The notes beneath the pieces were generated by a model. That model ran no database searches, was not told the DNA's origin, and saw only the letters and a program-made list of their open reading frames with translations. A DNA stretch of 64,000 nt from an uncultured Alphaproteobacteria bacterium (lineage in GTDB: Bacteria; Pseudomonadota; Alphaproteobacteria; Rs-D84), in the NCBI GenBank assembly GCA_947646585.1, contig CANSHD010000002.1, positions 203,614-267,613 on the forward strand, read 5' to 3'. A program made the translations under genes and the position numbers. Shown here piece after piece: positions 2,150 to 48,470 of this stretch. Numbering within the stretch: the first letter of the stretch is position 1; each line of letters opens with the position of its first letter.

Positions 2150-2208
2150 AATGTTGTGCATTTTATCTGGACGTCATTTAAAAGTCCAGCATAAAAGTAT
2201 AAAAATAT

Positions 2209-2988: not shown

Positions 2989-3037
2989 TTTAATATGCCC
3001 GGGGATTTCCCCGGGTATATTAAAATGGGAGTATTTC

Positions 3038-9244: not shown

Positions 9245-9265
9245 TAATGTGATATAATTACCGCT

Positions 9266-9757
9266 ATGAAAGACTATGTAGCAAGTTATGATGCCGCAAC
9301 CCGGCGGGTGTTGGAGAATGCGGCCAGAATAGACAAGTTTGCGCTGCCGCAAATTGACACGCCCTATTCTTTATATGATATCGCGTCGGTTTTGCGGAAA
9401 AAGTACAAGGACCATCTTTTCCGTGACAAATATGTCGGCGACATGCAGTTCCAGGGATTCACGCCATATCCAAAGGGATTTTGTGCGTTAAGCTCCATAT
9501 GTGTATACGAACTGTATGGCGGCGCGGATATCTGGGTGCCGTCGGCCATTCATTTGGGCGACTGTGAGTATGCGCCGGTGGTGTTTCTGCGTGACAAGGA
9601 ATTCGGTATTCCGTTCGACGCAACAGGCGACCAGTTTGCGCCGTTGCGTGTGCCGTATGAATTGGGTACGCCGATAAATCGCCCGATTGGCAAAATGCGC
9701 ACGCCGAACAAAGAAACTTTTATCAAACAAATAAAGCAAGAATTGGACAGACGTTAA
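9266..9757 (+). CDS. hypothetical protein
   Basis: 163-aa ORF whose stop abuts the xseA start. Confidence 0.55.
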   Translation: MKDYVASYDAATRRVLENAARIDKFALPQIDTPYSLYDIASVLRKKYKDHLFRDKYVGDMQFQGFTPYPKGFCALSSICVYELYGGADIWVPSAIHLGDCEYAPVVFLRDKEFGIPFDATGDQFAPLRVPYELGTPINRPIGKMRTPNKETFIKQIKQELDRR

Positions 9758-16586: not shown

Positions 16587-18533
16587 ATGGAAGCCGGTTT
16601 ATCAGTTGTTTTTGCGAATAAGATAGTATGGATTGCATGCGGCGGCATGGCGGTTATGATGCTGGCGGCAATCGGGGCGCTGTTTTTTGTGTCGCGCAAA
16701 TCGCAGAAAGTAATGGAATCTTTGCTGGGCATTATGTTACAGCCGGAGCGCGTAAAAATCCACGACGCGTCGCGTGTTCTGCGCACACTGATGGCGGACG
16801 AAATCGCAAAGATAGAGGCCGGATTCAAAACCATGTCCGACACCCTGCGCGCCCAGATTGCGGCCGCGGACAAATTGAACGAAGAACTGGGGCTGCAGAA
16901 TGAAAAACTGGTCGCGACCGCGGATGCGGCCACCAAGAAACTGGTAACGATGTCCCAGCGTCTGGACAATACCGTAACCGGACTGCACGACGTTGTAAAT
17001 TCGGATACGTGGCACGACGTTGAAACGGCGACCGCGCGCTTTAACGAGACGATATCGGAATTGCTGGCGCGCATAGACGCAACATCGCAGGAGGCCGCCG
17101 CCCGCATCGCCCACATTCAGGAACAGATTGACGCCTGGCAGGAATCGGGCCGCCAGTTGTCGGAGCGCTTAACAGCGGAATTTGAATCGAACGGCACGCA
17201 AATGAAAGACATGTCCGAACAGTCGGCCGCCCTGCGCGATCAGCTGGGGGCGCTGTCGCAGTCCGTGGCGGACGGCTTTGGCGCGGTAAAGTCCGCGGCG
17301 GCGGATTACGAGTCGGTTATGACCGGCAACGACAAGCTGCTGGGCGAGCATATATCCAAAATGGAAAACTTTAGCAAACAGTCAAAGAAACAGTTAACCG
17401 CGCAGATGAACACCCTTACCAACACAGCCAATGTTGTCGGCGGCCAGGTGCGTCTGGCGGAATCGTCCATTGACAAGCAGGTGCGCAAGTTAACGGACGC
17501 GGTTGAAACACTGATGTCGTCGGCCACCACAACGGAAAATTCCGTCCGCGGCATATCGACGGAGCTGGCGACGCTGACAAACCGCTTTAACGGCGAGATA
17601 AAGGAATTTGCGACGGGCGTCGTGTCCGAGTTAAAGACGGTGTCGGGCGTTGCGAATGTGACGCTGGAAAACACCAAGACGGCGGCGGGCGCATTCTCTG
17701 AATCCGTGCGCGCAATGGCGACCGGCGTGCGCGAAACGCTGATTGAAATGAACACGGCACACACTCAGCTGTCGGGCCAGTCGGCCGGCCTGATAAAAAT
17801 GTCGGCTGAAACAACCGCCCAGCTGCAGCCGCTGTCGGCGTTGATAGAAAAATATTATGCGGCCCTGCCCGATTTGTCGCGCGGCTCGGCCAAGACGACG
17901 GAGACGCTTGAAAAGATTGTCGGCAGTCTGAATGAAAAAATCAATTTAATGCGCGACACTGTTTCGGAATCGATGAATGCGATATCGGATTCGTCCGTAA
18001 AGCTGGAAGACTTGGCGGGACAATCGCGCCAACAGATGATAGATTTAATGGCGGATTACGCCAAGGCCGTGAACACCATGCAGACACTGAACAAACAGAT
18101 GATGGTTGCGCGCGCGTCCGCCCCGATGGATGCCATAAAGACGGCGCCGGCGGATTCATTTGCCCGCGTCAGCAGCCAGGATTTCCTGAAACAGAGCGAA
18201 AAGCTGTTTGAAAAAATGCATGAACAGTCGCTGGATTTAACGCGTGCGGCGGGTGCGGAAATACCGGACGTCGTGTGGAAGAAATATCATGCCGGCGACA
18301 AGACAATATTTTCAAAGTGGCTGGCCAAAATGATGGCGGCGGCGGATAAAAAGCGTGTTCGTGAAATGCTGAAATCCGATGCCGTGTTCCGTTCCCAGGC
18401 AACACAGTTCGTACGCAGCTTTGACAAAGTTCTGGCCGCGTCGCGCCAGGCGGACAATGCAGACAAACTGGCGGCGACACTGATAAAAACGGATTTAGGA
18501 CAGATTTATGCCGCATTAAAGGGGCATGTATAA
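16587..18533 (+). CDS. membrane-anchored long coiled-coil protein
   Basis: Start set at ATG 16587, with a GGAGGG RBS 6 nt upstream. One N-terminal TM helix, then about 600 aa of heptad-like sequence. Confidence 0.7.
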   Translation: MEAGLSVVFANKIVWIACGGMAVMMLAAIGALFFVSRKSQKVMESLLGIMLQPERVKIHDASRVLRTLMADEIAKIEAGFKTMSDTLRAQIAAADKLNEELGLQNEKLVATADAATKKLVTMSQRLDNTVTGLHDVVNSDTWHDVETATARFNETISELLARIDATSQEAAARIAHIQEQIDAWQESGRQLSERLTAEFESNGTQMKDMSEQSAALRDQLGALSQSVADGFGAVKSAAADYESVMTGNDKLLGEHISKMENFSKQSKKQLTAQMNTLTNTANVVGGQVRLAESSIDKQVRKLTDAVETLMSSATTTENSVRGISTELATLTNRFNGEIKEFATGVVSELKTVSGVANVTLENTKTAAGAFSESVRAMATGVRETLIEMNTAHTQLSGQSAGLIKMSAETTAQLQPLSALIEKYYAALPDLSRGSAKTTETLEKIVGSLNEKINLMRDTVSESMNAISDSSVKLEDLAGQSRQQMIDLMADYAKAVNTMQTLNKQMMVARASAPMDAIKTAPADSFARVSSQDFLKQSEKLFEKMHEQSLDLTRAAGAEIPDVVWKKYHAGDKTIFSKWLAKMMAAADKKRVREMLKSDAVFRSQATQFVRSFDKVLAASRQADNADKLAATLIKTDLGQIYAALKGHV

Positions 18534-34797: not shown

Positions 34798-36040
34798 ACT
34801 GATTTCGACAGCTGGCGAATGTCTGGGCCATCAATGACGACTCTTGTGTCGTCAGCGGCTGTACCGGAATCGTATAGCAGCGCGCGCCGTCCTCGATAAC
34901 GAATACTTTTGTCCCCAGTTTATACGCGTTTTGCATACTGTCCATCTGGGCGGATGTTAAAAACGCATTCTGGGTCATTGCGGAATTTGTCAGCGCCGCA
35001 TTCACAACTTGTTTTGCGGTGTTGTAATCGTCCAGACGCGACAAAGACTGAACCTGCATGTACAAGCTTTGGTTCTGATACGGGTTGTCCACTTTCGCGC
35101 CGCCCGCGTTCGGGAATGCGACACCGCTTATCAGTGCGGCGGCGGTTTGCAGTGTCGTCGGCTGTGACGATGAGCCGGCCGAATAATCCGCCGTGTTTAT
35201 CTGCAGATTTTCCCCGCACGCCAGATTCATGCGATTTGTATATCCGGCCAGAACGGAATCAACCGCCGCCTGCCAGTCGGCACCCTTGTTGTTCATGTCC
35301 AGGCTGACAATTTTTTCAGCCCAGCCCCAAATATTCGCACCGACATTGCCGGCATTGGCAAAGCGTGTAACCATTTCCGTACTGCCCCCCGGGACGCCGG
35401 CGCCGCAGTAATCCGTCAACTGTGCGTTCAGCTTGCTGGCGGTTTCGTTGCCGTACGCCATCGCAATGGAATGACAGGCCATTGCCGCCTCCAGCTCCTG
35501 GCGGCGCTGAAGACACAAATCGGAATGGGATTTCGACAGCTGGTCGGACATGCTGGCCATGGCCAGATATGACATAACCTCCTGCTGGACATAGGACGGG
35601 CACAGTCGGGCCGCCGTGTTCATGCCGGCGTTCATTGTTCCGGTTGCATACTGCGGCAACAATACCGACGTATCCTTTTGCAGGCACAGCATGGCGTAAT
35701 TATACAATTCGCTTTCCGATGAATACTGGCAACGACCGGACCGCTGGCCCGGGACGGCGGTAACATCGCCGCAATAATCCGACAGGCACTTATATATACG
35801 CTCGCGGCATGCCGTATCGACGTCGGGCTGGGTCACCATATAGTATGTGTTGCGCTGATTTGCCTTGTACGCATTGGCCAACTGTTGCTTGCCACGAAAG
35901 CCACCGCTTGTCTGGGTGTAGTTTCCGGCCACGCCACTGCGCGCGGCGGCGGCACCAACAGTCCCGGCAGATGCGCCATACGACGCGCCGCCCCAGCAGA
36001 CAAAGGCGCCCAAACAGAATATCAGCGTAAAATTCTTCAT
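34796..36040 (-). CDS. secreted hypothetical protein (about 414 aa, about 14 Cys)
   Basis: Start set at MKNFTLIFCLGAFVCWGGASYG (signal peptide). No family recognised. Confidence 0.6.
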   Translation of the reverse strand: MKNFTLIFCLGAFVCWGGASYGASAGTVGAAAARSGVAGNYTQTSGGFRGKQQLANAYKANQRNTYYMVTQPDVDTACRERIYKCLSDYCGDVTAVPGQRSGRCQYSSESELYNYAMLCLQKDTSVLLPQYATGTMNAGMNTAARLCPSYVQQEVMSYLAMASMSDQLSKSHSDLCLQRRQELEAAMACHSIAMAYGNETASKLNAQLTDYCGAGVPGGSTEMVTRFANAGNVGANIWGWAEKIVSLDMNNKGADWQAAVDSVLAGYTNRMNLACGENLQINTADYSAGSSSQPTTLQTAAALISGVAFPNAGGAKVDNPYQNQSLYMQVQSLSRLDDYNTAKQVVNAALTNSAMTQNAFLTSAQMDSMQNAYKLGTKVFVIEDGARCYTIPVQPLTTQESSLMAQTFASCRNQ

Positions 36041-36141
36041 AGAAATCCCTCTCGTTAATGGAAATTTTAACATATCGGTCTTTAAAAGGCAAACATTCAT
36101 TTTAGGTTGATTTGCATTTTATAACTGTTAATATCTCCAGC

Positions 36142-37213
36142 ATGATTATGCCCAACGAAGTTTTATCACAAATTCACGACGACATTACCGCCGTAAGGGG
36201 GTTTCTTTGACCCCGAAAAACTGCAATCTGATATAAATGAGCTGAACAAGTCGGCTGAAAACCCGGAATTATGGTCTAATCCGGACGCGGCGCGCGCCAT
36301 TTTGCAAAAAAAATCGGCATTGGAAAAATCATTGGCCGAGTTAAACAGCCTGGAAACCGAGTACCATACATTGGCCGAACTGTACCAGATTGCGCCGGAC
36401 GACGCGGACGTAATCGCGGGCATAGAAAAATTAAGCGACGACGCCCATCGGGCAAAGTTTATCACCCTGTTCCGCGACCCGGCCGACAACAACGGCGCAT
36501 TTCTGTTCATTCAGGCCGGCGCCGGCGGGACCGAGGCTCAGGACTGGGCCCAGATGCTTAGCCGAATGTACGCCCGGTGGGCCGAGCGGCACGGATTTTC
36601 CATCGATATCATAGAAGAGCACGAAGGCGACACGGCCGGCATAAAAAACATTACATACAGAATAAACGGCACGCGCGCATACGGGTGGCTGAAAAACGAA
36701 ATCGGCGTTCATCGCCTGGTTCGCATTTCGCCGTTCAACGCCAACGGCAAGCGCCAGACCAGCTTTGCCTCGGTTGACGTATGGCCCGACGTTGATGACA
36801 CAATTGAAATCGAAATAAACGACAAAGACCTGCGCATCGACACATATCGCGCATCGGGTGCCGGCGGCCAGCATGTTAACAAAACCGACAGCGCGGTGCG
36901 TATAACCCACATTCCGACAAACACAGTCGTCACATGCCAGAACGAGCGCAGCCAGATTCAAAACAAAGAAATGGCGATGAAAATGCTGCGTTCGCGCCTG
37001 TACGAGCTGGAAATGCAAAAACGCGCCGCGGAACAGGACGCCGCAAAAGCAGCCCAAAAGAAAATCGAATGGGGCAGCCAGATACGAAACTATGTCCTGT
37101 ATCCGTACCAGCTGGTAAAAGACGTGCGCACGGGCGTTGAAAAAACGGATTCCGACGCGGTTCTGGACGGCGATTTGGACGATTTTATGCTGGCGCTGTT
37201 GCAACGCGGATAA
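36142..37213 (+). CDS. prfB: peptide chain release factor 2, programmed +1 frameshift (36142..36207 joined to 36209..37213)
   Basis: Frame 1 is MIMPNEVLSQIHDDITAVRGFL-TGA. After a +1 shift it reads DPEKLQSDINELNK... and runs into the 303-aa ORF with SPF and GGQHVNKTDSAVR motifs. Confidence 0.9.
36196..36211 (+). promoter_or_regulatory. RF2 autoregulatory +1 frameshift site
   Basis: AGGGGG TTT CTT TGA C: an internal SD-like element, the slippery CTT, and an in-frame TGA followed by C. Confidence 0.9.
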
Positions 37214-37291
37214 AAAAGAAATTTAGCCGCTTGACTTTCATAATATTGACTATAAAATAATTTCGACAACTTGAATTTCGAGGTTAAACTG

Positions 37292-38104
37292 ATGACGGAC
37301 AAAATCCCAGATTTTTATAAACAGGCTGTCTACCACGCATTCCACGGGGTCATCGACATTCGCTATCCCAATATGCGCGGTGCGCACAATAATGTGCTTT
37401 TTGTGAAAACAAACGAAGGCGATTATACAACAAAGTTTATAAGCCACGACATGGCGCTTAAAAACAGTGCGGCGGCCCGACTGATGTCCGCACACGGAAT
37501 TCCGGTGCCGGAAACCCGTATTTTCAACTGTAACGGCACATGGATTGAGCGCTATCCGTTGATTCCCGGAAAAACATTGCATGAACAGATACGCATCGGC
37601 ATGCCAGAGGAGCAAATACGTCGTGCATACGAAGATATACTAACCCACTTTGTCGCCATGGAAAACATTCCGATAAGCCGGTTTGTTGTCGCCGCCAAAA
37701 CCCGCGAAGTTCACAACATGGCATATGAAAACGTCAAAGCGACAAACGGCACGGTTATGGCAACCGTTATGCGACCGCTGGCATATTTGGCAAATTGCGG
37801 ACGCAGCCGCAACACGGCCCTGTTGCACAGCGACATAACCCCCAAAAATGTTATCGTTGATGAAAACGGGCGCCTGGTATCGTTTTTGGATTTGGACGGC
37901 GTCACTCTGTGCAACCGCAGCTATGCGTTTGCGGTTATGGCCGACAAATGGCGCGAACTGGGCTTTAACCCGACAGAGCTGTATGACAAATATGAAATAA
38001 TGGCGGGCAAGCCGTTAAACCGCGGCCGTATAAACGCAATGCTGAACGCGGTACACTTCATGAAAACCATGATGTACCACACCAGCAAGCTGCGCGGGAA
38101 ATAA
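37292..38104 (+). CDS. aminoglycoside/choline-kinase-like phosphotransferase (APH family)
   Basis: Start set at ATG 37292 (GAGG RBS). Catalytic LLHSDITPKNVIVDENGRLVSFLDLDG (HxDxxxxN...D). Confidence 0.7.
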   Translation: MTDKIPDFYKQAVYHAFHGVIDIRYPNMRGAHNNVLFVKTNEGDYTTKFISHDMALKNSAAARLMSAHGIPVPETRIFNCNGTWIERYPLIPGKTLHEQIRIGMPEEQIRRAYEDILTHFVAMENIPISRFVVAAKTREVHNMAYENVKATNGTVMATVMRPLAYLANCGRSRNTALLHSDITPKNVIVDENGRLVSFLDLDGVTLCNRSYAFAVMADKWRELGFNPTELYDKYEIMAGKPLNRGRINAMLNAVHFMKTMMYHTSKLRGK

Positions 38105-38119
38105 GCGAATAATCATAAG

Positions 38120-38147
38120 TTGATTTTATTAAAAAAAGCGATATAAT
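38120..38147 (+). promoter_or_regulatory. promoter of the disrupted chromosomal tRNA-Arg gene
   Basis: TTGATT, 16-nt spacer, TATAAT, 16 nt before the tRNA 5' end. The architecture matches the element-borne tRNA promoter at 45759..45786. Confidence 0.55.
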
Positions 38148-38163
38148 CACTGGCGTCAAAAAA

Positions 38164-38202
38164 GCACCCATAGCACAACTGGATAATGCGCCGCCCTCCG
38201 AA
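38164..38202 (+). pseudogene. 5' half of a tRNA-Arg(CCG) gene interrupted in the anticodon loop
   Basis: GCACCCA-TA-GCAC-AACTGGATA-ATGC-G-CCGCC-CTCCGAA, followed by non-tRNA sequence. It pairs perfectly with the 3' half at 46019..46063. Confidence 0.85.
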
Positions 38203-38322
38203 TTTCGTAAGTCATTGTTTCCACTTGTTTCTTTTTGTTTGATTTTGCTGTATTTTTTCAGTTGCGTTCTATTCTGCACCGAGGTATAACGCTGTACGTA
38301 GTAGGCGGGAATTGTATAACGC

Positions 38323-38347
38323 AGGTTAGCCATAGGTTGGCCACCCC
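38323..38347 (+). repeat. 25-nt direct repeat, left copy (candidate arm-type integrase site)
   Basis: AGGTTAGCCATAGGTTGGCCACCCC is identical to 45913..45937. A degenerate third copy GGTTAGCCAGGCGTGGC follows at about 38355..38371. Confidence 0.85.
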
Positions 38348-38398
38348 AAATGCGGGTTAGCCAGGCGTGGCAGACCACGGAAGCAAAGGAAAACAAGC

Positions 38399-39631
38399 AT
38401 GCCCGCACAATTAAACGAGCGAAAATTCAATTTCACAGAAGCCAGTGTCGCCGCACTGCCGTTTGCCCCAAATGGCAAGCGTATCGTGTACTATGATAGC
38501 TATGTTCAAAATTTGGCGCTGCGCGTCAGTTCGGCGAACAAAATATATTATCTAGTCAAAAAAATAGCTGGACAAACTGTGTTCTCTAAAATCGGTGACA
38601 GCCGGAATACTGCGCTGAAAGACGCCCGAAAACAAGTGTATGAGCTTATGAATCATGCAAATCGTGGTGAAAATCCCAACGACGACAAACGCAGAATCCG
38701 GGAATCTATCACAGTTCAGGAATTTTTTGACGAGTACTATTTTCCAGACCACAGCCTTTTGCGCAAACAGGTGGCATCATGCAAAATGGATAATGTGAGT
38801 ATGCGGCTGTATATCCCGGCTGATATAAAACACCGTAAATTACTCAGCCTTTCCCGAGCCGATATGGAACGCATGCACAACAGCATTTGGAAACGCACCA
38901 ACAGTGTCTATTCTGCAAATCGCGGTTTGAAGCTGATGCGCCAAATGTTCAACAAAGCCATTGACTGGGGTATGCAATGTCATAATCCGGCGGCCAGAAT
39001 CAAACTATTCCCAGAAGCAAAACGCGACCGCTTTTTACAGCCTGACGAACTGCCACGGTTATTTGCGGCACTGGCGCAAGACCCAGACATGCACTTTCGT
39101 GCATTCATTTTATTGTGTATTCTGGTCGGCCAACGCCGACGCAACATGCAGTCTTTACGCTGGTCGGATATAAGTTTTGAACGCCGCGCTTTATATATAA
39201 AGAAAACCAAAAACGGCGACCCGCAAGCGGTGCCGTTGCCCGAACAGGCGCTTGTTATACTGCGCGAACTGGAAACATTTAAGACCAGTGAATGGGTATT
39301 CCCAAGCAAGCAATCTCGCAGTGGCCATCTTGAAAATCCACAAGTCCGCTGGCGCTCCTTGCTGAAACGTGCGGGTATTGAAAACATGCGCCTGCATGAC
39401 CTGCGTCGGACGTTTGCCAGCTATCAGGCAATCAATGGCGCATCAAATGAAATTATCGGCAAGGCTCTGGGCGACAAATCACCTGCCGTGATACCGATTT
39501 ATGCGCGCCTGACCGAGGCGCCTGTACGCCAAAGTATTCAAAACGCTGCCAACAGTATTTTACCAATGGCGAACCTGTTGCCTGCCGACCCCCGAAAAAA
39601 CCGAACAAGACCCAAAGGAAGGAACAAATGA
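38399..39631 (+). CDS. int: P4-type tyrosine integrase
   Basis: 410 aa with a DUF4102-like N-terminus. Catalytic region has GQRRRNMQSLRW, HDLRRTFAS and IPIYARL (R..HxxR..Y). Confidence 0.9.
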   Translation: MPAQLNERKFNFTEASVAALPFAPNGKRIVYYDSYVQNLALRVSSANKIYYLVKKIAGQTVFSKIGDSRNTALKDARKQVYELMNHANRGENPNDDKRRIRESITVQEFFDEYYFPDHSLLRKQVASCKMDNVSMRLYIPADIKHRKLLSLSRADMERMHNSIWKRTNSVYSANRGLKLMRQMFNKAIDWGMQCHNPAARIKLFPEAKRDRFLQPDELPRLFAALAQDPDMHFRAFILLCILVGQRRRNMQSLRWSDISFERRALYIKKTKNGDPQAVPLPEQALVILRELETFKTSEWVFPSKQSRSGHLENPQVRWRSLLKRAGIENMRLHDLRRTFASYQAINGASNEIIGKALGDKSPAVIPIYARLTEAPVRQSIQNAANSILPMANLLPADPRKNRTRPKGRNK

Positions 39632-40248
39632 CCTGTACTCTATATGAAGCACTGACATGGGTGGCATTTGGCGCGTTTGACGTGCCATTTGCCGAACGAA
39701 ATAAAAATCAGGAAACACTGGACAAAGCGAAACAACTTTTGCGCCGTGCATTTATCGCTGGGCACGTACATATAGGGTCCGGCAAAGAGGTGTTGCATAT
39801 GACGGAAAATATTGCGCTTGACTGGGATACAAACAGCATTGTGTTATGCACATATCCCGGGCAATATATATCTGAACAAATGCTGATAAAGAATATTCAG
39901 GTTATTACCGAAGATTTGAAACGTGAATTTCCAAAGCCTGTGCATGAACACCAACCGCTTATTGAAAAAGAAAGTTCAAAACGACCGGGTGCAAGCATCC
40001 TGCATGACATCGCATATTATCTGTGGGAAAAAGAACAAAATCTTTCCGCCAAAGAGATATACCATATCGTCAATGCCGTCATGGGCACTTATCCAAGGTA
40101 TAAAGACCGCACGGTGGTCCAACTGAGCAGTGTTGAAAAATGGCTGACGGGGTTCCGCAATGGCACATATAAGCCAGCGAACGAAAAACACATATTGATA
40201 AAACAATTCCCTGGTCTGTTTGATAAAATGCGCAAAGCGCACAGATGA
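39628..40248 (+). CDS. hypothetical protein (element-encoded)
   Basis: 206-aa ORF with a 4-nt overlap with int. Confidence 0.55.
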   Translation: MTCTLYEALTWVAFGAFDVPFAERNKNQETLDKAKQLLRRAFIAGHVHIGSGKEVLHMTENIALDWDTNSIVLCTYPGQYISEQMLIKNIQVITEDLKREFPKPVHEHQPLIEKESSKRPGASILHDIAYYLWEKEQNLSAKEIYHIVNAVMGTYPRYKDRTVVQLSSVEKWLTGFRNGTYKPANEKHILIKQFPGLFDKMRKAHR

Positions 40249-40259
40249 CGATTCGTGAA

Positions 40260-40298
40260 TTGGAATCTGACACGAATCCAACTGGAATCCAACACGAA
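40260..40298 (+). repeat. two 17-nt direct repeats spaced 22 nt (operator or iteron candidates)
   Basis: TGGAATCTGACACGAAT (40260..40276) and TGGAATCCAACACGAAT (40282..40298). An inverted ATTCGTG lies at 40250..40256. Confidence 0.5.
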
Positions 40299-40325
40299 TT
40301 TAAGACATTTTATTTTGCTCTGACA

Positions 40326-40350
40326 CGCCCGTAAATCGGGCGATTTTTTT
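40326..40350 (+). terminator. intrinsic terminator
   Basis: CGCCCG-TAAAT-CGGGCGATTTTTTT. Confidence 0.6.
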
Positions 40351-40462
40351 ATTCTCACTCTTATATTCATTTTTTAGTGGTCTGATTATTTTTTCGCCAT
40401 TGCTAGTTTCCCAGTGTCGCGCTGGCAATGGTGCCGGGCGTCCAAAATCAAGGGAGTTAAAA

Positions 40463-40672
40463 ATGATTTTGAAACAACAATATTTCAGTACTGACGAACT
40501 CGCCGAGTTATTGCGGGTGCGTAAAAATACAGTGGAAAAGTGGCGCAACAGCCGTTCGTGTCCTTTCAGCTGGACAAAGGTCTGTGGCCGGATTTTATTT
40601 GACCGCGACGAAGTACTGAAATATCTAGAATCCAACAAACGTCAATCAATACATACAACCACAGGAATATAA
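40463..40672 (+). CDS. AlpA/excisionase-like helix-turn-helix protein
   Basis: Start set at ATG 40463 (GGGAG RBS). MILKQQYFSTDELAELLRVRKNTVEKWRN... resembles the MerR/Xis-type HTH typical of islands. Confidence 0.6.
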   Translation: MILKQQYFSTDELAELLRVRKNTVEKWRNSRSCPFSWTKVCGRILFDRDEVLKYLESNKRQSIHTTTGI

Positions 40673-40673
40673 A

Positions 40674-42512
40674 ATGAAAAATTTTTTAATTGAAAAACTA
40701 CAAACTGCGGGCATTGAATTGCCGCGTGATATAAAGGCTGACGGCTTCACACGCTGGGGGCATAACAACAAGTACTGGTTGACACCGGTCGCGGACGGCT
40801 ACGCGTTCGGCGATTGGTCAAGTGGTGAAAAGCATTTCGCTTTTCCGAACGACGTCAATCTGTTGTCGCCAGCCGAACAAGCGGAAATAAACCGCAAAAT
40901 TGCTGCTGAACGCGCAAAATACCATGCCGAGCAACAGGAACAACAAAATAAGGTTGCGGAAACAGCCGCGGCACAGTTTGCAAAAATGGACGACGCACCG
41001 GCGGAACATCCGTATTTGGCGCGCAAGCAAATCACGGCCAACGCCGCAAAGTACAACCCGGGCACACAATCATTGGTGGTGCCCTTGTATGATACCAACG
41101 GCAAACTGTGGTCGTTGCAATATATCGGTCCAAACGGCGAAAAGCGCTTCATACCAGGCGGTCGTAAAAAGGGTTGTTTCTGCCCATTCGGCGACGAAAC
41201 AGATACAATTATTATCTGTGAAGGATTCGCCACTGCGGCGACCATTCATGCCGCCACTGGTCTGCACACTATTGCCGCAATGGACGCTGGTAATCTGTCG
41301 CCTGTGGCGCAGTCAATCCGCTCAAAATATCCAACCGCAAAAATGATTATTGCGGCGGATAATGACTGGGAATCTGAAATCAATACCGGTGTAAATGCTG
41401 CTGCCGTGGCTGCGGACACAGTCTGTGCCACCCTGTGCGTGCCGACAATAGATACACACGGCATGTCGGATTTTAACGACATAGCGGTCAGCCAAGGTTT
41501 AGCACAGGTAAAACAACAACTGAACGCGGCCATTGCGGTTGCAATGCGTCCATTAAACGGGGGATTCCGTGTTATAAGCGCGGCGGAATTTCTGGGACAA
41601 GAACTGCCACCGATTGAGTTCCTGTTGTATCCGCTGATACCACAAAACGGATTATCGTTGTTGTATTCTGAAAGAGGCGCAGGCAAAACATTCATGGCCA
41701 TGGCTATTGCAATCGCGGCCGCCAGCGGCTTTGATTTCTTGAATTTCAAGGCGGAAAAACCGCGCCGTGTTCTTTACATTGATGGTGAAATGGACGCACG
41801 TGAAATGCAGGACAGATTTAACCTGCTTATTGCCGGGTTTGAGTCAGAAGGCAAAGAGGTAATCCGTGACAATATAACCTTGTTCTTGTCGGGTTTGCAA
41901 GACAATGCAACCATGCCAGACCTTGCGACACCAATCGGCCAGCGTCAGGTGGAACTGTACGCCAAAAATGCTGACCTGATTATAGTGGACAATATCTTTT
42001 CACTATACACCGCAGGACGTGAAAATGACGCGGACAGTTGGGTAAAATACAACGAATGGTCGCGTAAAATGCGCGCAATGGGGAAGTCCATATTGTGGCT
42101 GCACCACACCGGCAAAGATAAGACCCGGGGACCGCGTGGCTCGTCCGCGATAGAAGCGATATTGAACACGTCTATTGCGTTGGAGGTGTCAAGCAACCAC
42201 AAAGCCAACGACGGCGCCGAAGTTCTGGCGGAGTATCACAAATCCCGCGGGGTCAGTGGCGACGATGTCCGTCCGTTTGCGGCTAAACTGGTATCCATTC
42301 GTGACAACGACGGCAAGATAATCGCCCTTAAATGGGCAATAATGGATACGCCACAAGACGCGCAGCGCAACGAAATTACCGAATTGCATGCAGCCGGTAA
42401 AACCATAGCGGAAATATCCGAAGAAACCGGCATTAAAAAATCAACGGTTCACCGCCGCCTGAAAGCCTGGGGCCTGACCGGCAGGACAACCGCCCCGGCA
42501 AATCAGCCGTAA
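40674..42512 (+). CDS. primase (Toprim) fused to a RepA-like AAA/RecA-type helicase, with C-terminal HTH
   Basis: Toprim IIICEGFATAATIH...IIAADNDWE. P-loop SERGAGKTF. Walker B-like LIIVDN. C-terminal TIAEISEETGIKKSTVHRRL. Confidence 0.8.
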   Translation: MKNFLIEKLQTAGIELPRDIKADGFTRWGHNNKYWLTPVADGYAFGDWSSGEKHFAFPNDVNLLSPAEQAEINRKIAAERAKYHAEQQEQQNKVAETAAAQFAKMDDAPAEHPYLARKQITANAAKYNPGTQSLVVPLYDTNGKLWSLQYIGPNGEKRFIPGGRKKGCFCPFGDETDTIIICEGFATAATIHAATGLHTIAAMDAGNLSPVAQSIRSKYPTAKMIIAADNDWESEINTGVNAAAVAADTVCATLCVPTIDTHGMSDFNDIAVSQGLAQVKQQLNAAIAVAMRPLNGGFRVISAAEFLGQELPPIEFLLYPLIPQNGLSLLYSERGAGKTFMAMAIAIAAASGFDFLNFKAEKPRRVLYIDGEMDAREMQDRFNLLIAGFESEGKEVIRDNITLFLSGLQDNATMPDLATPIGQRQVELYAKNADLIIVDNIFSLYTAGRENDADSWVKYNEWSRKMRAMGKSILWLHHTGKDKTRGPRGSSAIEAILNTSIALEVSSNHKANDGAEVLAEYHKSRGVSGDDVRPFAAKLVSIRDNDGKIIALKWAIMDTPQDAQRNEITELHAAGKTIAEISEETGIKKSTVHRRLKAWGLTGRTTAPANQP

Positions 42513-42522
42513 TGCGCCCATA

Positions 42523-42569
42523 AATCCCATTTTCCCACACACTATATAGACGGAAAATGGGATTTTTTA
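42523..42569. terminator. bidirectional terminator hairpin
   Basis: ATCCCATTTTCC...GGAAAATGGGATTTTTT lies between the convergent primase-helicase and Slam-like genes. Confidence 0.6.
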
Positions 42570-42581
42570 TTGTTCCGAATA

Positions 42582-43916
42582 CTAAAACCGCCGCATGATT
42601 TCAATTTCCACGCGGTGTTTATCAAATTCGCTTGTTGGAACATTGGAATCTCGCCGGGTGTATGTATATGACACCGCTGGAATCAGATTGCACCAGTTTA
42701 ATTTATTGTTTGACACGCGAACATATGCCGACCATACCGTGTCATGACGTGTTTTCTGTTCAAAGGCATTGTCTATAACAAAATACCGCGACGCGTGATA
42801 TTTTGTGCTTGTTAAATCCAACCGCGCCAGCACCGCGAACCCATAACGAAATTCCCCGAAATACCCGACTGAATATGTCATGCTGTCGTTCCCGTATGCC
42901 CGAACGTGCGTATTTTCCTGACCGAACCGCAGACCGGCTAAAACAAAACTCTTGTTGTTCAAATAATACCGGGGTTGCAGTGACACACTCCAATCATACC
43001 CACGCAAGGCATCGTTTATATAATCCGTATGATACTGGTTGCGGTACAGACTTGCACCACCACCCAGCAACCAACGCCGCCCAAGCTGCCAGTTTGTATC
43101 CAAACGCAACCCGTATGAATAGTTGTAAAAATCCCCCGCATACCACCGCGCAACCGTTACGGGTTGCAGGCTTATCTCGCCACTGTCAAACACGTATCGC
43201 GGCCCGGTTGCAAGATACAGCGAATAATCGTCAAAATCACCGCCCGGAAAATCCAACACATTCACGCCGGCTGTTGTACGAATCCCCAGTCGTCGGCTTA
43301 GCCGTAAATAATAATCTCCGTCGGCGTTCAAACGAACCCCAACACCGTGTTTGCGCGTTTCCAGTGGCCGGCACAGCGGGCCGAATATTGTATTTATACA
43401 TTCTTCATTTTCCGTGCCTGCATTGTTGATATTTGAATCCGGCACAATGCCAAAACCGAAATCCAAAGACCAATTTTTGCGCATGCGTATCAGGGTCAAA
43501 TATCTGTCTATATTCTCGCGCACTGCGGCGGGCAAACCCGACGTTGCACGCACAAATTCAAAATGGAACTGCGCCGCTTGAAAATCGCCGTTCATAAAAT
43601 AAGCACGCGCCAGTTCTAGGCGCACCCGTGACAGGTTCGGATTTGCGTCCACAATCGCACGATATGCGCCAATCGCAGCACTGTAATCCCCACGCGCCAT
43701 TGCGATATTGCCCAGTTGGAATTGTGATTCTGTGCGCATATCTGCGCTTGCACTATGCGATATGGCAGAATATATCGGTTGCGCAGCGTCTAAATCACCA
43801 TGCGCCGCCATATTATCGGCCACAGCCAACAGTTCTGATTCCGTCAGGTGTTGTTCAGCCCCTGCTGAGGTGGCGGCCAATAATACCGCAACCCCAGCAT
43901 ACAATACCACGCGCAT
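42582..43916 (-). CDS. Slam-like (DUF560) outer-membrane protein: N-terminal TPR plus C-terminal beta-barrel
   Basis: Signal peptide and TPR-like repeats (GDYSAAIGAYRAIVDANPN...ARAYFMNGDF). The barrel region starts with WSLDFGFGIVPDSNINNA. The protein ends ...VEIEIMRRF. Confidence 0.65.
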   Translation of the reverse strand: MRVVLYAGVAVLLAATSAGAEQHLTESELLAVADNMAAHGDLDAAQPIYSAISHSASADMRTESQFQLGNIAMARGDYSAAIGAYRAIVDANPNLSRVRLELARAYFMNGDFQAAQFHFEFVRATSGLPAAVRENIDRYLTLIRMRKNWSLDFGFGIVPDSNINNAGTENEECINTIFGPLCRPLETRKHGVGVRLNADGDYYLRLSRRLGIRTTAGVNVLDFPGGDFDDYSLYLATGPRYVFDSGEISLQPVTVARWYAGDFYNYSYGLRLDTNWQLGRRWLLGGGASLYRNQYHTDYINDALRGYDWSVSLQPRYYLNNKSFVLAGLRFGQENTHVRAYGNDSMTYSVGYFGEFRYGFAVLARLDLTSTKYHASRYFVIDNAFEQKTRHDTVWSAYVRVSNNKLNWCNLIPAVSYTYTRRDSNVPTSEFDKHRVEIEIMRRF

Positions 43917-43919
43917 TTA

Positions 43920-45197
43920 TCAGTCCTTTACCGCCCCAAAGGAGAAATTTATATCACGATAATAACCGTCCTGCATTTGCACATTACTTGTTCCAACTGT
44001 GCCAACTGTTTCTGTGGCTGGCAGAAAAGCATCGGGGCCATAATATTGTATATCTTTGGTGTAGATACTTTTGGGATTCTCAACTTTGAATTTTGGGTCT
44101 GTTGTGGGGTTGCCGACATATACCAATTCATTGTCTTTTGTATACACCTTGTACCACCCAGCATCTGTAAAATCCATGACCAAGTTCTCTGTACCGTTAT
44201 CAGCATTAAAAGATAACTTGACCGTGCCGTCTGCTGTGAATCCTGGCATGTCGTCAATTTCTATAAACTCATAACCTGAACTTGAGCCGACTTTATTTGT
44301 TTTCCCTGTTGATATTCCAACAAATGCCTTGCCAGAATAAGTGTGATTCCCCGTAATTACTCCAATGTCCGCCAATGTGTGCATATCAACCGCACGCGCC
44401 GGGTCGCCAGATTTCCAGCCCGCAAAGGTATAAACAGAATAAGGGTGTCCATAGGCTGTTTTGGGGATAATACGCTCCCAGTACCCAAAATCTGAAAATC
44501 GTAGCGGAACATTTGAATTCTTACTCCCTACTGTGAACTCTGCTCGCCCGGCATTGCCGTTATAGGAAAATTCTTTTACAAACTTGCCGTCCGTAGAGTT
44601 TTTTAGGTCAAAAATTATTTCTGGCTCTGAATCATTTTCCAACAAACAACCGTTTATATCCCTACATATAACAGTTATTTCTTTACCTTGGTCTGCATGC
44701 GATGCACAGCCACCAGGCAAATCACATTGAGACCTATACCATTCTTGTTTCCCTGATGCGTAATTAGTAAATTTATAATAATATTCCCCATAATTATATG
44801 ACAAATCACAACCGGATTCTTCTTGACATGTACTGGTATATGTATATTGGTATGGTCGCAATCGTTGGATTCGTAGTTCCTCATTTTCTTTATCAAAAAC
44901 ACCGGCAATACGATATGGCTCATTTGTACTCGTAGAAAAAGTCCCCATTGATACAGTTAGTTTTTTACTGTCCGGAACATTCGGGTATTTTATATTATCA
45001 CTTGGCTGTTGAGTGTTATCGCCGGGCTTTTCTGTGGTATTATCGCCACCGGGCTGTTCTCCAGGTTTTGTTGTGGTGCCGCCACTGATTCCGGCACTGC
45101 TTCCTATATTATATTTTGCACCACCGCCCCCATGGCCGCCGCCATTGTTGCATGCGCACAACGATACCAACATCGCCATAAAAACATATTTACGCAT
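43920..45197 (-). CDS. surface lipoprotein candidate with TbpB/fHbp-like C-terminal barrel
   Basis: Lipobox MAMLVSLCAC followed by a Gly-rich linker. The C-terminus ...GTVKLSFNADNG...YYGPDAFLPATETVGTVG...INFSFGAVKD resembles TbpB-type lobes. It lies immediately upstream of the Slam-like gene. Confidence 0.6.
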   Translation of the reverse strand: MRKYVFMAMLVSLCACNNGGGHGGGGAKYNIGSSAGISGGTTTKPGEQPGGDNTTEKPGDNTQQPSDNIKYPNVPDSKKLTVSMGTFSTSTNEPYRIAGVFDKENEELRIQRLRPYQYTYTSTCQEESGCDLSYNYGEYYYKFTNYASGKQEWYRSQCDLPGGCASHADQGKEITVICRDINGCLLENDSEPEIIFDLKNSTDGKFVKEFSYNGNAGRAEFTVGSKNSNVPLRFSDFGYWERIIPKTAYGHPYSVYTFAGWKSGDPARAVDMHTLADIGVITGNHTYSGKAFVGISTGKTNKVGSSSGYEFIEIDDMPGFTADGTVKLSFNADNGTENLVMDFTDAGWYKVYTKDNELVYVGNPTTDPKFKVENPKSIYTKDIQYYGPDAFLPATETVGTVGTSNVQMQDGYYRDINFSFGAVKD

Positions 45198-45417
45198 CTC
45201 TCTCCCCCTTTTTGTTGTTTTGTTTACTATTTATGCTTTGAAAAACTAGCCAGCCAAACACAATGCCACCAAACAACAATATGATTTGGAAACATTCCTG
45301 TGCGTCACTCCATTGACTGATTGAAAAACACAACGCCGCAAGGGTAATCATGTACGCCATGTTTTCTTTACTTATTTTGGGCGCCACTGTACTTCTGGGT
45401 GACTGATTATCTGACAT
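45190..45417 (-). CDS. small membrane protein (75 aa)
   Basis: ATG 45417 is preceded by AAGGAG. Two hydrophobic segments. It overlaps the lipoprotein start by 8 nt. Confidence 0.45.
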   Translation of the reverse strand: MSDNQSPRSTVAPKISKENMAYMITLAALCFSISQWSDAQECFQIILLFGGIVFGWLVFQSINSKQNNKKGERDA

Positions 45418-45758
45418 TTGTATCTCCTTATTGCAAAACAAAAACCGCCAAAGGAATGGCGGTCGGGCGTTTTCAAAATCATACGATAAATGACCCTGTT
45501 GCTTTCGGTCAGGCCTATTATATAACAACAGACACCCGACCTTGCGGCCAGGCATAATCGGATTACGACGCAACACACGCCGTATCGTATGGGTTTTGAA
45601 AGACCCCGAACCCAATTCCCATTGGATTCATTTGCATTATATCAGGAATTTTGCCCGTTGTAAATACCGACGGACCAAACAAAAGGTACTCATACGGATT
45701 TTGTGGGGGGATACGGTGTACGTTGTGTATATTTTATGATTTTTTTAGTAATTCATGT

Positions 45759-45786
45759 TTGATTTTACCGGAAATCACTGTATAAT
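45759..45786 (+). promoter_or_regulatory. promoter of the element-borne tRNA-Arg
   Basis: TTGATT, 16-nt spacer, TATAAT, 17 nt before the tRNA 5' end. Confidence 0.55.
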
Positions 45787-45803
45787 TACATGCAAATCAG
45801 ATT

Positions 45804-45880
45804 GCACCCGTGGCCTAACTGGATATGGCACGTCCCTCCGAAGGACGGGGTTGCAGGTTCGAATCCTGCCGGGTGCGCCA
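45804..45880 (+). tRNA. tRNA-Arg (anticodon CCG), carried inside the element
   Basis: GCACCCG-TG-GCCT-AACTGGATA-TGGC-A-CGTCC-CTCCGAA-GGACG-GGGTT-GCAGG-TTCGAAT-CCTGC-CGGGTGC-G-CCA. Confidence 0.9.
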
Positions 45881-45912
45881 AGTTTTGTTGCGTCGGAATG
45901 CGCTGCATAAAA

Positions 45913-45937
45913 AGGTTAGCCATAGGTTGGCCACCCC
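45913..45937 (+). repeat. 25-nt direct repeat, right copy
   Basis: AGGTTAGCCATAGGTTGGCCACCCC is identical to 38323..38347. Confidence 0.85.
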
Positions 45938-46018
45938 GACAGCGGCAAAAATAAGCGCCCGCTGAAGCGTGCAGAAAACAAGGAAAAATTAGCGACTCAA
46001 ACCCGGCAAGTCCTGAAA

Positions 46019-46063
46019 CTCCGAAGGCGGAGATTACAGGTTCGAGTCCTGTTGGGTGCGCCA
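46019..46063 (+). pseudogene. 3' half of the interrupted tRNA-Arg(CCG) gene
   Basis: CTCCGAA-GGCGG-AGATT-ACAGG-TTCGAGT-CCTGT-TGGGTGC-G-CCA. GGCGG pairs with CCGCC, and TGGGTGC pairs with GCACCCA of the 5' half. Confidence 0.85.
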
Positions 46064-46067
46064 GAAT

Positions 46068-46100
46068 CAAAAAAGCCGACTTGTTGTCGGCTTTCTTTTT
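46068..46100. terminator. bidirectional intrinsic terminator
   Basis: AAAAAGCCGAC-TTGTT-GTCGGCTTTCTTTTT lies between the tRNA 3' half and the convergent ABC transporter gene. Confidence 0.7.
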
Positions 46101-47871
46101 ATTGCTTTTTAAACTGCATGTCATGCAGGGCACGATACGCCCCGCCCTCGATGGCCAGCAGCTCTTCATGAGTGCCGCATTCGACGATTTCGCCATGATT
46201 TATTACGGCAATCTTGGTCGCGTTGCGTATTGTGGACAGGCGGTGCGCAATGACGAACACCGTTTTGTCCTCCATCAGGTTTTCAATGGCTTTTTGCACG
46301 ACCGCCTCCGCCTTGTTGTCAAGGGCGGAGGTGGCCTCGTCCAGAACCAATATAGGCGCATTTTTCAAGAATGCGCGTGCGATTGCGACACGCTGTTTCT
46401 GGCCGCCGGACAACAGAATGCCGCGCTCGCCAATCTGGGTGTCGACACCGTTCGCCAATGTGGCGACAAAGTCGTCCAGGTACGCCATTTTTATTGCGCG
46501 CCACATATCCTCTTCGGTTGCATTTTCATTGCCCAGCATAATATTCTCGCGGATGGTGCCGGCGAACAGGAAATTATCCTGGAAAACGACCGCGATATTG
46601 CGACGCAATGACTTTAACGTAAAGTCGCGGATATCCGTGCCGTCAATCTTTATCGCACCGGCGGTCGGGTCATAGAAACGCGGCAGCAGGCTGACCAGCG
46701 TTGATTTGCCGCCGCCGGAATTGCCGACCAGCGCGATTGTATCCCCGCGGTTTGCGGTTAAATTTATATTCTTTAACACCGGCACGCGCGGAACATATTC
46801 GAAACACAGGTCGCAAAATTCAATCTTTTCCAATTTGCCGTCAAATTCACGGGCATTCGGACGATCTTTTATCCGCGGTTCGGCGTTCAATATGTCAAAC
46901 ACGCGGTCAATCGCCATGAACGACATAACCATCGAATTAAAGTTGCCGCCCAAGCTTTTCAGCGGCGTGTACAGCATGATAAGCGCGGTAAGGAATGAAA
47001 CAAAGCTGCCGCTGGTGATTTGGCCCGTCAAAATAAGATAAGAACCGAACCATATCGCCAGACCGATTCCGACAGACATAATCATGTGCATCAGGGGCGA
47101 GACCCAGCTGGTGCGCTGAATCATCTTGATGCGCAGCCAGAAAATATTGTCCAAAACCTTGGAAAACTTGTTCGTCTGGCACTGTTCCAGGTTGTACGAG
47201 ATAATTGTTTTGTTGCCGGCGTAAGACTCGTTATAAGCCGTTAAAATCGCCGCGTCGGCCGATATGGACTTTTTAATTACGGAATTGATTCTTTTCTTGA
47301 TGCGCGTCGCGGGCAAAAACGCAAAGACCAATATTGCGACGCAGACCAGCGCCAGCTGCCATGAATTATAGAACATAACGGCGATTAGGGATATCGAAGA
47401 GAACAAACGCTGAACGAACGTCTTTAGGTTCTTTAACAGCCCCGCGCACGCCATGTCGGCATTATTGTTAAACATAAAGATGACATCGCCGGAATTCTTG
47501 GTATTAAAGAAATTCGTGTCGAATTTCAGCATCTTTTTATACAGGTCGAATTTCAGACGGTTCGTTATTTTTGAGCCGGTCCATGTATTCAGATACGACG
47601 AGATATAGCCCAAACCGCCCTGCAAAGTGGTAAATGCGATGATAACCAACGGTATGTGCCACGATGCCTGAATGGATTTTTCAACCATGACCAAATCCAT
47701 GTACGGCTTTAACGACAATGCGATAACCGCATCCAAGGAACCGATTGGAATTGTAATCAATATCGCCAGCAGCGCGCGGAACCAATATGGCTTAACATAC
47801 GGCCACATGCGCCGATAATTAAAAACAAACGGATTATTAACTATTTTGTTTAAGCAGTCTTTGGCTGTCAT
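46099..47871 (-). CDS. ABC exporter, fused permease/ATPase (MsbA-like)
   Basis: 590 aa with six N-terminal TM helices. Walker A GNSGGGKST, signature LSGGQKQR, Walker B ILVLDEATSALD. Confidence 0.9.
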   Translation of the reverse strand: MTAKDCLNKIVNNPFVFNYRRMWPYVKPYWFRALLAILITIPIGSLDAVIALSLKPYMDLVMVEKSIQASWHIPLVIIAFTTLQGGLGYISSYLNTWTGSKITNRLKFDLYKKMLKFDTNFFNTKNSGDVIFMFNNNADMACAGLLKNLKTFVQRLFSSISLIAVMFYNSWQLALVCVAILVFAFLPATRIKKRINSVIKKSISADAAILTAYNESYAGNKTIISYNLEQCQTNKFSKVLDNIFWLRIKMIQRTSWVSPLMHMIMSVGIGLAIWFGSYLILTGQITSGSFVSFLTALIMLYTPLKSLGGNFNSMVMSFMAIDRVFDILNAEPRIKDRPNAREFDGKLEKIEFCDLCFEYVPRVPVLKNINLTANRGDTIALVGNSGGGKSTLVSLLPRFYDPTAGAIKIDGTDIRDFTLKSLRRNIAVVFQDNFLFAGTIRENIMLGNENATEEDMWRAIKMAYLDDFVATLANGVDTQIGERGILLSGGQKQRVAIARAFLKNAPILVLDEATSALDNKAEAVVQKAIENLMEDKTVFVIAHRLSTIRNATKIAVINHGEIVECGTHEELLAIEGGAYRALHDMQFKKQ

Positions 47872-47996
47872 TATATTCCCTTGTCAACAGGGACTACCAT
47901 AATCCAAGCATCAGGAATTGGCAAGTATTAAATGCTTGTTTTAAGCGGCCTGTTTGGTGTACAATAAAAGCCTCACACGACAGGGATACGATTATC

Positions 47997-48470
47997 ATGC
48001 GAAACACAATCTTTTTAACGGCGGCCGCAATATTTCTGGCCGGCTGCAACAGTATATATGTGAAACCCGGCACAATGACACCGGCCGAGACCGTATATGC
48101 CGACCGCGGCGGATATACAATGCGGCGCAGCATCAAAATAGAGCTGGAACGCCGCGGATACAACGTCGTTGTCGGCAAGGCGATAAGCAACCGGAATTGG
48201 TCCGACGGTGGCGATGATTTGGAAATTGAAACCAGCAAGGTTCCAAATCAGGCACGTTATTACATAAAGGTCAACGAGCGCAGCGAAAAGTTCCGGCCGA
48301 TTTGGTGCGCACTGAACGGCGTGTGGTGGTGGAACTTTAACGTTTCAATCGCCGACCAGAGTACCGGCAAAGAGCTGATGACGTGGCGCGGTCGCGGTTG
48401 TGCGGACAGTTCCATGCGTCTGTTGCGGCGAACACTGGACAAAATGGAGAGACAGAATGAACAACAATGA
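47997..48470 (+). CDS. hypothetical lipoprotein
   Basis: MRNTIFLTAAAIFLAGCNS has a lipobox. Confidence 0.6.
   Translation: MRNTIFLTAAAIFLAGCNSIYVKPGTMTPAETVYADRGGYTMRRSIKIELERRGYNVVVGKAISNRNWSDGGDDLEIETSKVPNQARYYIKVNERSEKFRPIWCALNGVWWWNFNVSIADQSTGKELMTWRGRGCADSSMRLLRRTLDKMERQNEQQ

Follow-up and report, generated by a model that had tools for sequence, protein, structure and literature searches.

Among described mobile elements, the closest counterparts of the one reported here are temperate phages that practise tRNA-dependent lysogeny, in which a phage-borne tRNA is required where integration does not rebuild the host tRNA. The requirement has been shown experimentally in mycobacteriophages, and the system has been described for Fionnbharth/K4, cluster L, Gaia, and Gordonia CQ2/DL, with cores of 8–17 bp and no reconstruction of the tRNA (Guerrero-Bustamante & Hatfull, mBio 2024; PMC10865867). 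The Lj965 prophage of Lactobacillus johnsonii is cited as a probable case outside the actinobacteriophages (PMC10865867), and in Sinorhizobium meliloti two Lo5R7ANS-like prophages are reported to inactivate tRNA-Leu(UAG) and to bring a substitute (PMC11476347). The principle of disrupting and replacing a tRNA gene is already known from phages and is not unprecedented; in the literature searched, no report of this strategy in non-phage islands or satellites was found. Here we describe a 7.8-kb element, at positions 38203–46018 of a 64,000-nucleotide stretch of an uncultured alphaproteobacterial genome (contig CANSHD010000002.1; the whole stretch is hereafter the window), which lies between the two halves of a host tRNA-Arg(CCG) gene and encodes a complete tRNA-Arg(CCG). 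We put at roughly 85% the probability that the whole arrangement is explained by a satellite-like element that splits the host tRNA gene and carries its replacement.

The more familiar tRNA-targeting elements leave the target gene whole. In canonical tRNA and transfer-messenger RNA (tmRNA) islands, by the Islander definition, an intact tRNA is restored and a displaced fragment lies at the other end (PMC4383910), while tycheposons, which as elements resemble this one most, carry partial-tRNA repeats of ~40 nt and likewise keep the tRNA intact (Hackl et al., bioRxiv 10.1101/2020.12.28.424599). With canonical islands the present element shares a tyrosine integrase, crossover at the anticodon loop, and a displaced tRNA fragment at one end. 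An anticodon-loop class of tRNA-targeting islands was reportedly recognized by Williams in 2002. Islands, however, bring a surrogate 3′ (rarely 5′) segment of ~20–50 bp and regenerate the tRNA, whereas in the attachment site of the present element and its relatives (attP) the tRNA sequence amounts to the loop, with or without a few stem bases, and the gene is not repaired. Instead of the restored tRNA and the repeat of tens of base pairs that mark an Islander-type island, only the 7-bp loop is repeated here.

A tRNA-Arg(CCG) gene split at its anticodon loop

The two halves of the host gene, at 38164–38202 and 46026–46063 with the core counted once, join into a flawless 77-nt tRNA-Arg(CCG) with an encoded CCA, called as such by ARAGORN, and thereby bear out an earlier note on this DNA, which had read a perfect cloverleaf from the two segments. 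The acceptor (GCACCCA/TGGGTGC), anticodon (CCGCC/GGCGG), and T (ACAGG/CCTGT) stems of the joined molecule are complete, and its anticodon loop is CTCCGAA. This 7-nt loop, which the note had recognized as a direct repeat at both junctions, is the sole identity that the junctions have in common: the left one reads gcc-core-ttt and the right one aaa-core-ggc. A repaired chromosomal site (attB) would read …GCGCCGCC-CTCCGAA-GGCGGAGATT….

The host gene is truly broken, as had been claimed. Neither ARAGORN, applied to the whole window, nor a permissive Rfam scan of 36000–48000 detected a tRNA at either junction (attL or attR), and when the 5′ half of the host gene is joined to the 3′ half of the element tRNA the product misfolds, in the window as in two related loci, L007 and L020. 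The flanks of the core in attP are not tRNA-like on either side.

Inside the right end of the element lies the second, self-contained tRNA-Arg(CCG) (Table 1), as described earlier. It has the anticodon of the broken gene, a covariance-model score far above the gathering threshold, and a promoter-like site of its own, and its 3′ end lies 138 nt before the right core, where ~140 nt had been estimated. Its anticodon stem, CGTCC/GGACG, differs from the host stem, and the stretch …GGCACGTCCCTCCGAAGGACGGGG… tells it from the host halves. No + strand terminator was found between the element tRNA and the terminator of the host gene. Judged by sequence, recombination inside the anticodon loop was precise, is reversible in principle, and destroyed the host gene, and the element carries a cognate, high-scoring tRNA equipped with a putative promoter.

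The machinery for such a crossover is also visible. The suggestion that a tyrosine integrase had crossed over in the anticodon loop is strengthened by an integrase with an arm-binding domain, by arm-type repeats on both sides of the core, and by canonical relatives that cross over at the anticodon loop. The repeat, GGTTRGCCA, occurs five times, all in one orientation in the reconstructed attP, and is absent from the rest of the 64 kb; L020 and L021 have equivalent repeats. In a circular form the order would be tRNA-Arg(CCG) with its promoter-like site, P arm, core CTCCGAA, P′ arm, int, the excisionase-like gene, primase/helicase, and cargo, with an attP junction reading …AAGTCCTGAAA-CTCCGAA-TTTCGTAAGTC….

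Relatives, empty sites, and movement between species

A search for homologs of the integrase found 813. Split targets were sought by taking 7-mers shared between the DNA upstream of the integrase and that downstream, joining the flanks, and keeping ARAGORN calls that span the joint. About 10 relatives have the layout of the window. Each has a host tRNA interrupted in the anticodon loop, a core of 7–19 bp, junctions that are not tRNAs, and a complete element tRNA, of the same anticodon as the target, ending 127–144 nt inside one junction. The target is Arg-CCG in L020 (integrase identity 72%), L021 (70%), L235 (60%; partial, the contig ending in the element tRNA), L022 (57%), and L228/229 (57%). 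It is Arg-TCT in L231/232 (56%), L025 (54%), L236–238 (53%), L239 (51%; partial in the same way), and L233 (50%), and these elements all carry tRNA-Arg(TCT). The joined halves are perfect tRNAs in each host, and the element tRNAs score 62.6–72 bits. The reading of the earlier note, that the element disrupts and replaces, draws comparative support from this recurring layout and from the matching of Arg-TCT targets by tRNA-Arg(TCT).

Each of the 9 pairs of element tRNA and target examined shows a difference in the anticodon stem (9/9). In L233 a single compensatory swap, C:G to T:A at 28:42, is the sole difference between the element and host tRNAs. A universal rule at 29:41, with G:C in targets and A:T in element tRNAs, was considered and rejected, since it is broken by L231 and L233, which differ at 27:43 or 28:42.

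Other comparisons concern what moves together. The elements of L022 and L228 have common attP arms and reside in hosts with different tRNA alleles. In L025 the primase (2710–4254) is 92% identical to that of the window (40674–42512) while the integrase is only 54% identical, which indicates that tRNA, attP, and int have been exchanged together as one module. In L233 (7742–12886) and L239 (3255–3310, 9980–10023) the host tRNA and int are on opposite strands; in this sub-clade the core is inverted within attP, and the position and strand of the element tRNA are kept. The same two loci led us to reject the host tRNA promoter as a general driver of int, although no terminator intervenes between that promoter-like site and int in the window, which is compatible with such transcription there. 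Beside the displaced host tRNA half of L239, positions 1724–3304 encode a 526-aa large serine recombinase with a Resolvase domain, an indication that the locus also houses another, unrelated mobile element.

On a neighbour-joining tree of integrases, the split-and-carry elements are monophyletic. Their sister group targets tRNA-Asn with repeats of 23–54 bp, and in relatives farther removed the rebuilt gene is tRNA-Met, Thr(CGT), or Arg(CCT), with 41–49-bp repeats that run from the 3′ end to the anticodon loop. The integrases of these canonical relatives (tRNA-Met, Thr, Arg-CCT, Asn) are 31–47% identical to that of the window.

Set beside tRNA-dependent lysogeny, the group shows the same tyrosine integrase with arm-type sites, an attB inside a host tRNA gene, and a very short core (8–17 bp there; 7 bp here and 7–19 bp in relatives) with no junction that rebuilds the tRNA. 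Phages and elements alike carry a tRNA that matches the target in anticodon and has a promoter (here a promoter-like site) of its own, and both have close integrase relatives that include canonical tRNA-rebuilding elements. Unlike the phages, however, the carrier here lacks virion and lysis genes: it is an int-xis-primase element of 5–8 kb, and it does not occur in a viral-contig collection in which the integrase relatives reach at most 32% identity. The tRNA lies beside attP, 127–144 nt from the core, whereas that of Fionnbharth lies elsewhere and overlaps gene 37. The trait, scattered in phages, is fixed across this integrase clade through a target switch and an orientation flip. Finally, the host is a reduced-genome gut alphaproteobacterium, and the need for the tRNA, proven there, is presumed here. 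The element is not counted as a member of tRNA-dependent lysogeny because it is not a temperate phage.

Might the element tRNA instead be ordinary accessory cargo, which supplies codons or evades tRNA-targeting defences in a host that has another CGG decoder and tolerates the disruption? Phage- and island-borne tRNAs often serve such roles (PMC10865867, discussion), and our search for tRNA genes spans the 64-kb window only. We nonetheless regard this explanation as improbable. The carried anticodon is always that of the destroyed gene, even after the switch from Arg-CCG to Arg-TCT, and even in elements whose integrases are only 50% identical the tRNA keeps its place next to attP. The CGG codon accounts for 92 of 903 Arg codons and occurs in most genes (33 of the 41 host open reading frames of the window). 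Redundancy of tRNAs is, moreover, unlikely in the host genomes: integrase relatives in species-representative genomes belong to Candidatus Enterousia, an uncultured gut alphaproteobacterial genus, and the host is a Candidatus Enterousia species, one of the reduced-genome gut Alphaproteobacteria, whose genomes span 0.75–1.0 Mb (PMC12306168).

Uninterrupted target genes, which the earlier note had proposed to look for in relatives, do occur. Degenerate pattern matching of metagenomes, with a pattern that only an uninterrupted host-type gene would match, returned 45 loci. One, L189, has the synteny of the window, prfB (92%), APH, intact tRNA, and ABC transporter (91%); the tRNA is identical to the joined halves at 76/77 positions and scores 64.7 bits, and its 5′ half is 100% identical to the host 5′ half of the window. 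A second, L224, has similar synteny and a tRNA identical at 74/77 positions (64–65 bits for the two loci). The attB site thus exists uninterrupted in near relatives. Assemblies with the site empty include the ERZ777306 NODE-1213 bin and the 935-kb ERZ1026780 NODE-1, and occupied ones, besides that of the window, JBGUTP01, JAZROX01, and JAZNGD01. A further candidate for an alternative state of the site, L097, found through its ABC-transporter ortholog, was rejected, having an unrelated context and no tRNA-Arg.

Two side observations concern the surroundings of the chromosomal gene. In L189 the 110 nt 5′ of the intact tRNA (reverse-complement 8469–8578; the tRNA starts at 8579) are ~83% identical to window positions 45692–45803, upstream of the element tRNA, and are unrelated to the L224 counterpart and to the host promoter of the window; promoter regions have been exchanged between chromosomal and element tRNA cassettes, in one direction or the other. 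A two-piece (permuted) tmRNA gene, of ordinary kind, lies a few kilobases from tRNA-Arg(CCG) in L020 (20293–20672) and L189 (55–395).

Several points weigh against the disrupt-and-replace reading. Exact-protein look-ups of the flanking RF2, APH, and ABC proteins returned only occupied or truncated contigs of the window's own strain, so that ongoing excision there is unproven. The attP junction pattern of an excised circle had no match in the viral contigs, and contigs with this integrase all hold it integrated, none having the right end of the element upstream of int. The integrase tree is a simple one without support values. That the element tRNA is expressed and aminoacylated is a prediction from its sequence, and that integrants require it is our inference.

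The occupied contigs and the missing circle, together with the decayed host half of L021 described below, would also suit a decayed canonical island that had once rebuilt the tRNA at a junction, its internal tRNA being unrelated and the element immobile. This we hold to be very unlikely in view of L007, another Candidatus Enterousia species. Its element is 98.5% identical to that of the window over 7.8 kb, whereas the chromosomal flanks are only 73–76% identical, which contradicts a single ancestral insertion; the element has therefore moved recently between species, into the orthologous tRNA each time. The host halves are precise and host-specific: the split tRNA of L007 is a different allele (60/77 identical to that of the window, with 17/77 positions differing), which is found intact, 77/77, in five metagenome contigs. 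This copy excludes both a one-off decayed relic and an assembly artefact. Against decay speak, too, the intact open reading frames of int, xis, and primase and the layout with perfect joined halves shared by the diverged relatives.

The metagenomic source raises the thought of a chimera at 38202/38203 or 46018/46019, which the earlier note had named as a possible refutation; its probability is negligible, for the same two junctions recur in independently assembled Logan contigs from >12 sequencing runs (among the runs with such contigs are SRR28398869, SRR30663422, SRR21588802, and ERR13248727) and in metagenome-assembled genomes of other projects. Equally negligible is a functional split tRNA gene of archaeal type, with halves that are separate transcripts put together in trans, the arrangement of Nanoarchaeum: the halves are perfect complements of one tRNA, yet trans-splicing was rejected because their flanks form a duplex of −11.8 kcal/mol, no better than shuffled sequences (mean −12.7) and of no special complementarity, and because no promoter-like site precedes the 3′ half; the intervening DNA is, besides, a mobile element absent from related genomes, and bacteria are not known to have the archaeal splicing endonuclease.

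Gene content of the element

The element has a G+C content of 46.7%, against 50.8% for the window, and its features are collected in Table 1.

Table 1. Features of the split tRNA-Arg(CCG) locus, in window coordinates
Feature	Position	Strand	Remarks
Promoter-like site of interrupted host tRNA-Arg(CCG) gene, TTGATT-16-TATAAT	38120..38147	+	
Host tRNA-Arg(CCG), 5′ half	38164..38202	+	acceptor 5′ strand, D arm, anticodon-stem 5′ strand, anticodon loop
attL core CTCCGAA	38196–38202	+	within host 5′ half
attP P′ arm (element left end)	38203..38398	+	196 nt; three arm-type repeats, 38324–38332, 38335–38343, 38355–38363
Tyrosine integrase with N-terminal arm-DNA-binding domain	38399..39631	+	PF00589 6e-25, PF13356; phrog_1
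206-aa open reading frame, no assigned function	39628..40248	+	an open reading frame of 145–206 aa has this place after int in every relative
Excisionase-family/AlpA-like helix-turn-helix protein	40463..40672	+	PF12728; TIGR01764 31.1 bits (cutoff 28.8); phrog_66
Toprim + AAA_25 primase/helicase with C-terminal helix-turn-helix (replication module)	40674..42512	+	phrog_2249 8e-72
Cargo: Slam-type outer-membrane surface-lipoprotein assembly modulator	42582..43916	−	PF04575 3e-34, PF24575
Cargo: 425-aa protein with lipoprotein-like N-terminus	43920..45197	−	MRKYVFMAMLVSLCAC, then Gly-rich linker
75-aa open reading frame	45190..45417	−	called in related contigs
Conserved structured RNA region, antisense to and upstream of element tRNA	45436..45640	−	promoter-like site 45664–45636, terminator 45464–45443
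Promoter-like site of element tRNA, TTGATT-16-TATAAT	45759..45786	+	
Element tRNA-Arg(CCG), encoded CCA	45804..45880	+	ARAGORN; Rfam 62.6 bits, gathering 29
attP P arm (element right end)	45881..46018	+	138 nt; two arm-type repeats, 45914–45922, 45925–45933
attR core CTCCGAA	46019–46025	+	followed by displaced host 3′ half
Displaced host 3′ half	46026–46063	+	anticodon-stem 3′ strand, variable loop, T arm, acceptor 3′ strand, CCA
Intrinsic terminator of host tRNA gene	46072–46094	+	now first + strand terminator 3′ of element tRNA

The AlpA-like product is, by its family matches, probably a recombination directionality factor. No virion, lysis, packaging, or conjugation genes were found among the element proteins with Pfam, PHROGs, and NCBIfam, and the element is a small satellite-like or mobilizable integrative element rather than a prophage. 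Its organization, an int–xis/alpA–primase/helicase core with variable cargo, is that of phage satellites of ~5–15 kb. With tycheposons and PICI-/P4-like satellites in particular it has in common small size, a tyrosine recombinase, xis, a primase/helicase, variable cargo, and residence at tRNA genes, as well as integrase clades that partition by target tRNA. Capsid-remodelling, redirection, or packaging families were not recognized with Pfam and PHROGs, two open reading frames of the element being without any match.

The cargo faces the other way. The 425-aa lipoprotein-like protein has no Pfam, PHROG, NCBIfam, or PDB relative; it is presumed to be the substrate of the neighbouring Slam protein, in which case 42582–45197 would encode Slam and its substrate as a mobile pair, here in a gut alphaproteobacterium. 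In another relative, L228, the cargo comprises a DUF488 protein and an AAA_15/AAA_21 ATPase, which could be a defence system.

Between the cargo and the element tRNA lies a conserved RNA region of ~190 nt, with a consensus fold of 48 pairs, 11 of them with compensatory changes, and homologs in L237 (5813–6016; 94%), L025 (5979–6180; 90%), L020 (16890–17075; 76%), and L021 (16440–16660; 72%). It could be a regulator of the element or a leader of the cargo operon. An assignment to sRNA-Xcc1 was rejected, as the match is below the gathering threshold in the window (38.9 against 53 bits) and absent at that threshold in 7 relatives. Sequence 70–76% identical to this region also occurs to the left of the host tRNA-Arg(TCT) 5′ half (9551–9590) in L236, at 9262–9465, and beside a chromosomal target tRNA in L208, at 1198–1300, and in neither place is an integrase nearby. 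These stretches may be relics of earlier elements, and the resident tRNA would then possibly be element-derived.

Disruption, probable replacement, and their consequences

The first step of the mechanism, integration, can be read from the sequence comparisons. A lambda-type tyrosine integrase recombines attP with the stem-loop that bears the anticodon in the chromosomal tRNA-Arg(CCG) gene, and the 7-nt loop serves as the overlap region. Since no tRNA-like sequence flanks the core in attP, the host gene is left as a promoter-bearing 5′ half at attL and a terminator-bearing 3′ half at attR, neither of them functional. The element tRNA would then take over the decoding of CGG, and Int together with the Xis-like protein could later excise the element and restore the host gene precisely. 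That the element tRNA complements the lost one we infer from its cognate anticodon, promoter-like site, and covariance-model score, from CGG usage, and from the reduced genome and the phage precedent.

The likely advantage lies in what the target need no longer provide. A canonical element that crosses over in the anticodon loop must produce a hybrid tRNA, with acceptor and anticodon stems formed by pairing between the two sides of the joint. Where the carried tRNA is self-consistent, by comparison, only the anticodon stem-loop would have to match the target and a hybrid need never fold, so the same element could enter hosts with differing tRNA alleles. This release from the hybrid-folding constraint is plausible, and it fits the two host alleles that differ at 17 positions.

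The earlier note had gone further and likened the arrangement to an addiction mechanism. As an immediate effect this is overstated: precise excision by Int and Xis would rebuild the host gene, and the element is therefore not addictive in the sense of a toxin–antitoxin pair. The part that survives is narrower. An imprecise deletion would be harmful if there is no other CGG decoder, and decay of the host halves after insertion would make the element tRNA indispensable, so that dependence would be a ratchet, with loss of the element lethal once the halves have decayed. L021 illustrates such lock-in. At 17040–17152 its displaced host 3′ half is interrupted in the T arm by an insertion of ~70 nt. 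The end motif of the insertion (GCGAACTATCCGCCGGG) is found again ~60 nt downstream, a sign of a small repeat or a MITE-like (miniature inverted-repeat transposable element) sequence. Excision there could no longer restore the host tRNA, and with that half broken the genome presumably lives on the element tRNA.

A broader proposal, which we make tentatively and think somewhat doubtful as a whole, is that tRNA, attP, and int form an obligate portable module with three properties together. Such a module would let a satellite-like clade escape the limits that tRNA sequence sets on host range. Compensatory changes in the anticodon stem, such as that of L233, would keep the integrase off the element's own tRNA; protection of the element tRNA by its stem differences is offered here as a hypothesis. 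In reduced genomes, lastly, the element tRNA and its upstream region would sometimes become the resident gene and later be targeted anew. Possible relics of such takeover lie next to chromosomal tRNAs in L189, L208, and L236. A separate candidate, widespread turnover of the tRNA gene, was rejected: element-like relics lie near only 2 of the 45 intact chromosomal tRNA-Arg(CCG) loci, and turnover is therefore occasional at most.

What sets the present case apart is the non-viral carrier, the tight tRNA-attP-int linkage, the clade-wide fixation, and the reduced-genome host. The strategy of disrupting and replacing a tRNA gene reaches beyond the temperate phages of Actinobacteria, into small non-viral elements of uncultured gut Alphaproteobacteria, where the trait is stable, clade-wide, and packaged as a tRNA-attP-int cassette of ~1.8 kb. 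Since only the anticodon stem-loop must match, it would explain how one element uses diverged tRNA alleles in different species. Island finders that seek a restored tRNA and a displaced fragment, by the logic of Islander and TIGER, probably miss such elements. The cassette might also become an integration vector for organisms that are now without any. For the host group, tiny genomes with presumably single-copy tRNAs, the example of L021 suggests that an essential gene of translation can pass to a mobile element.

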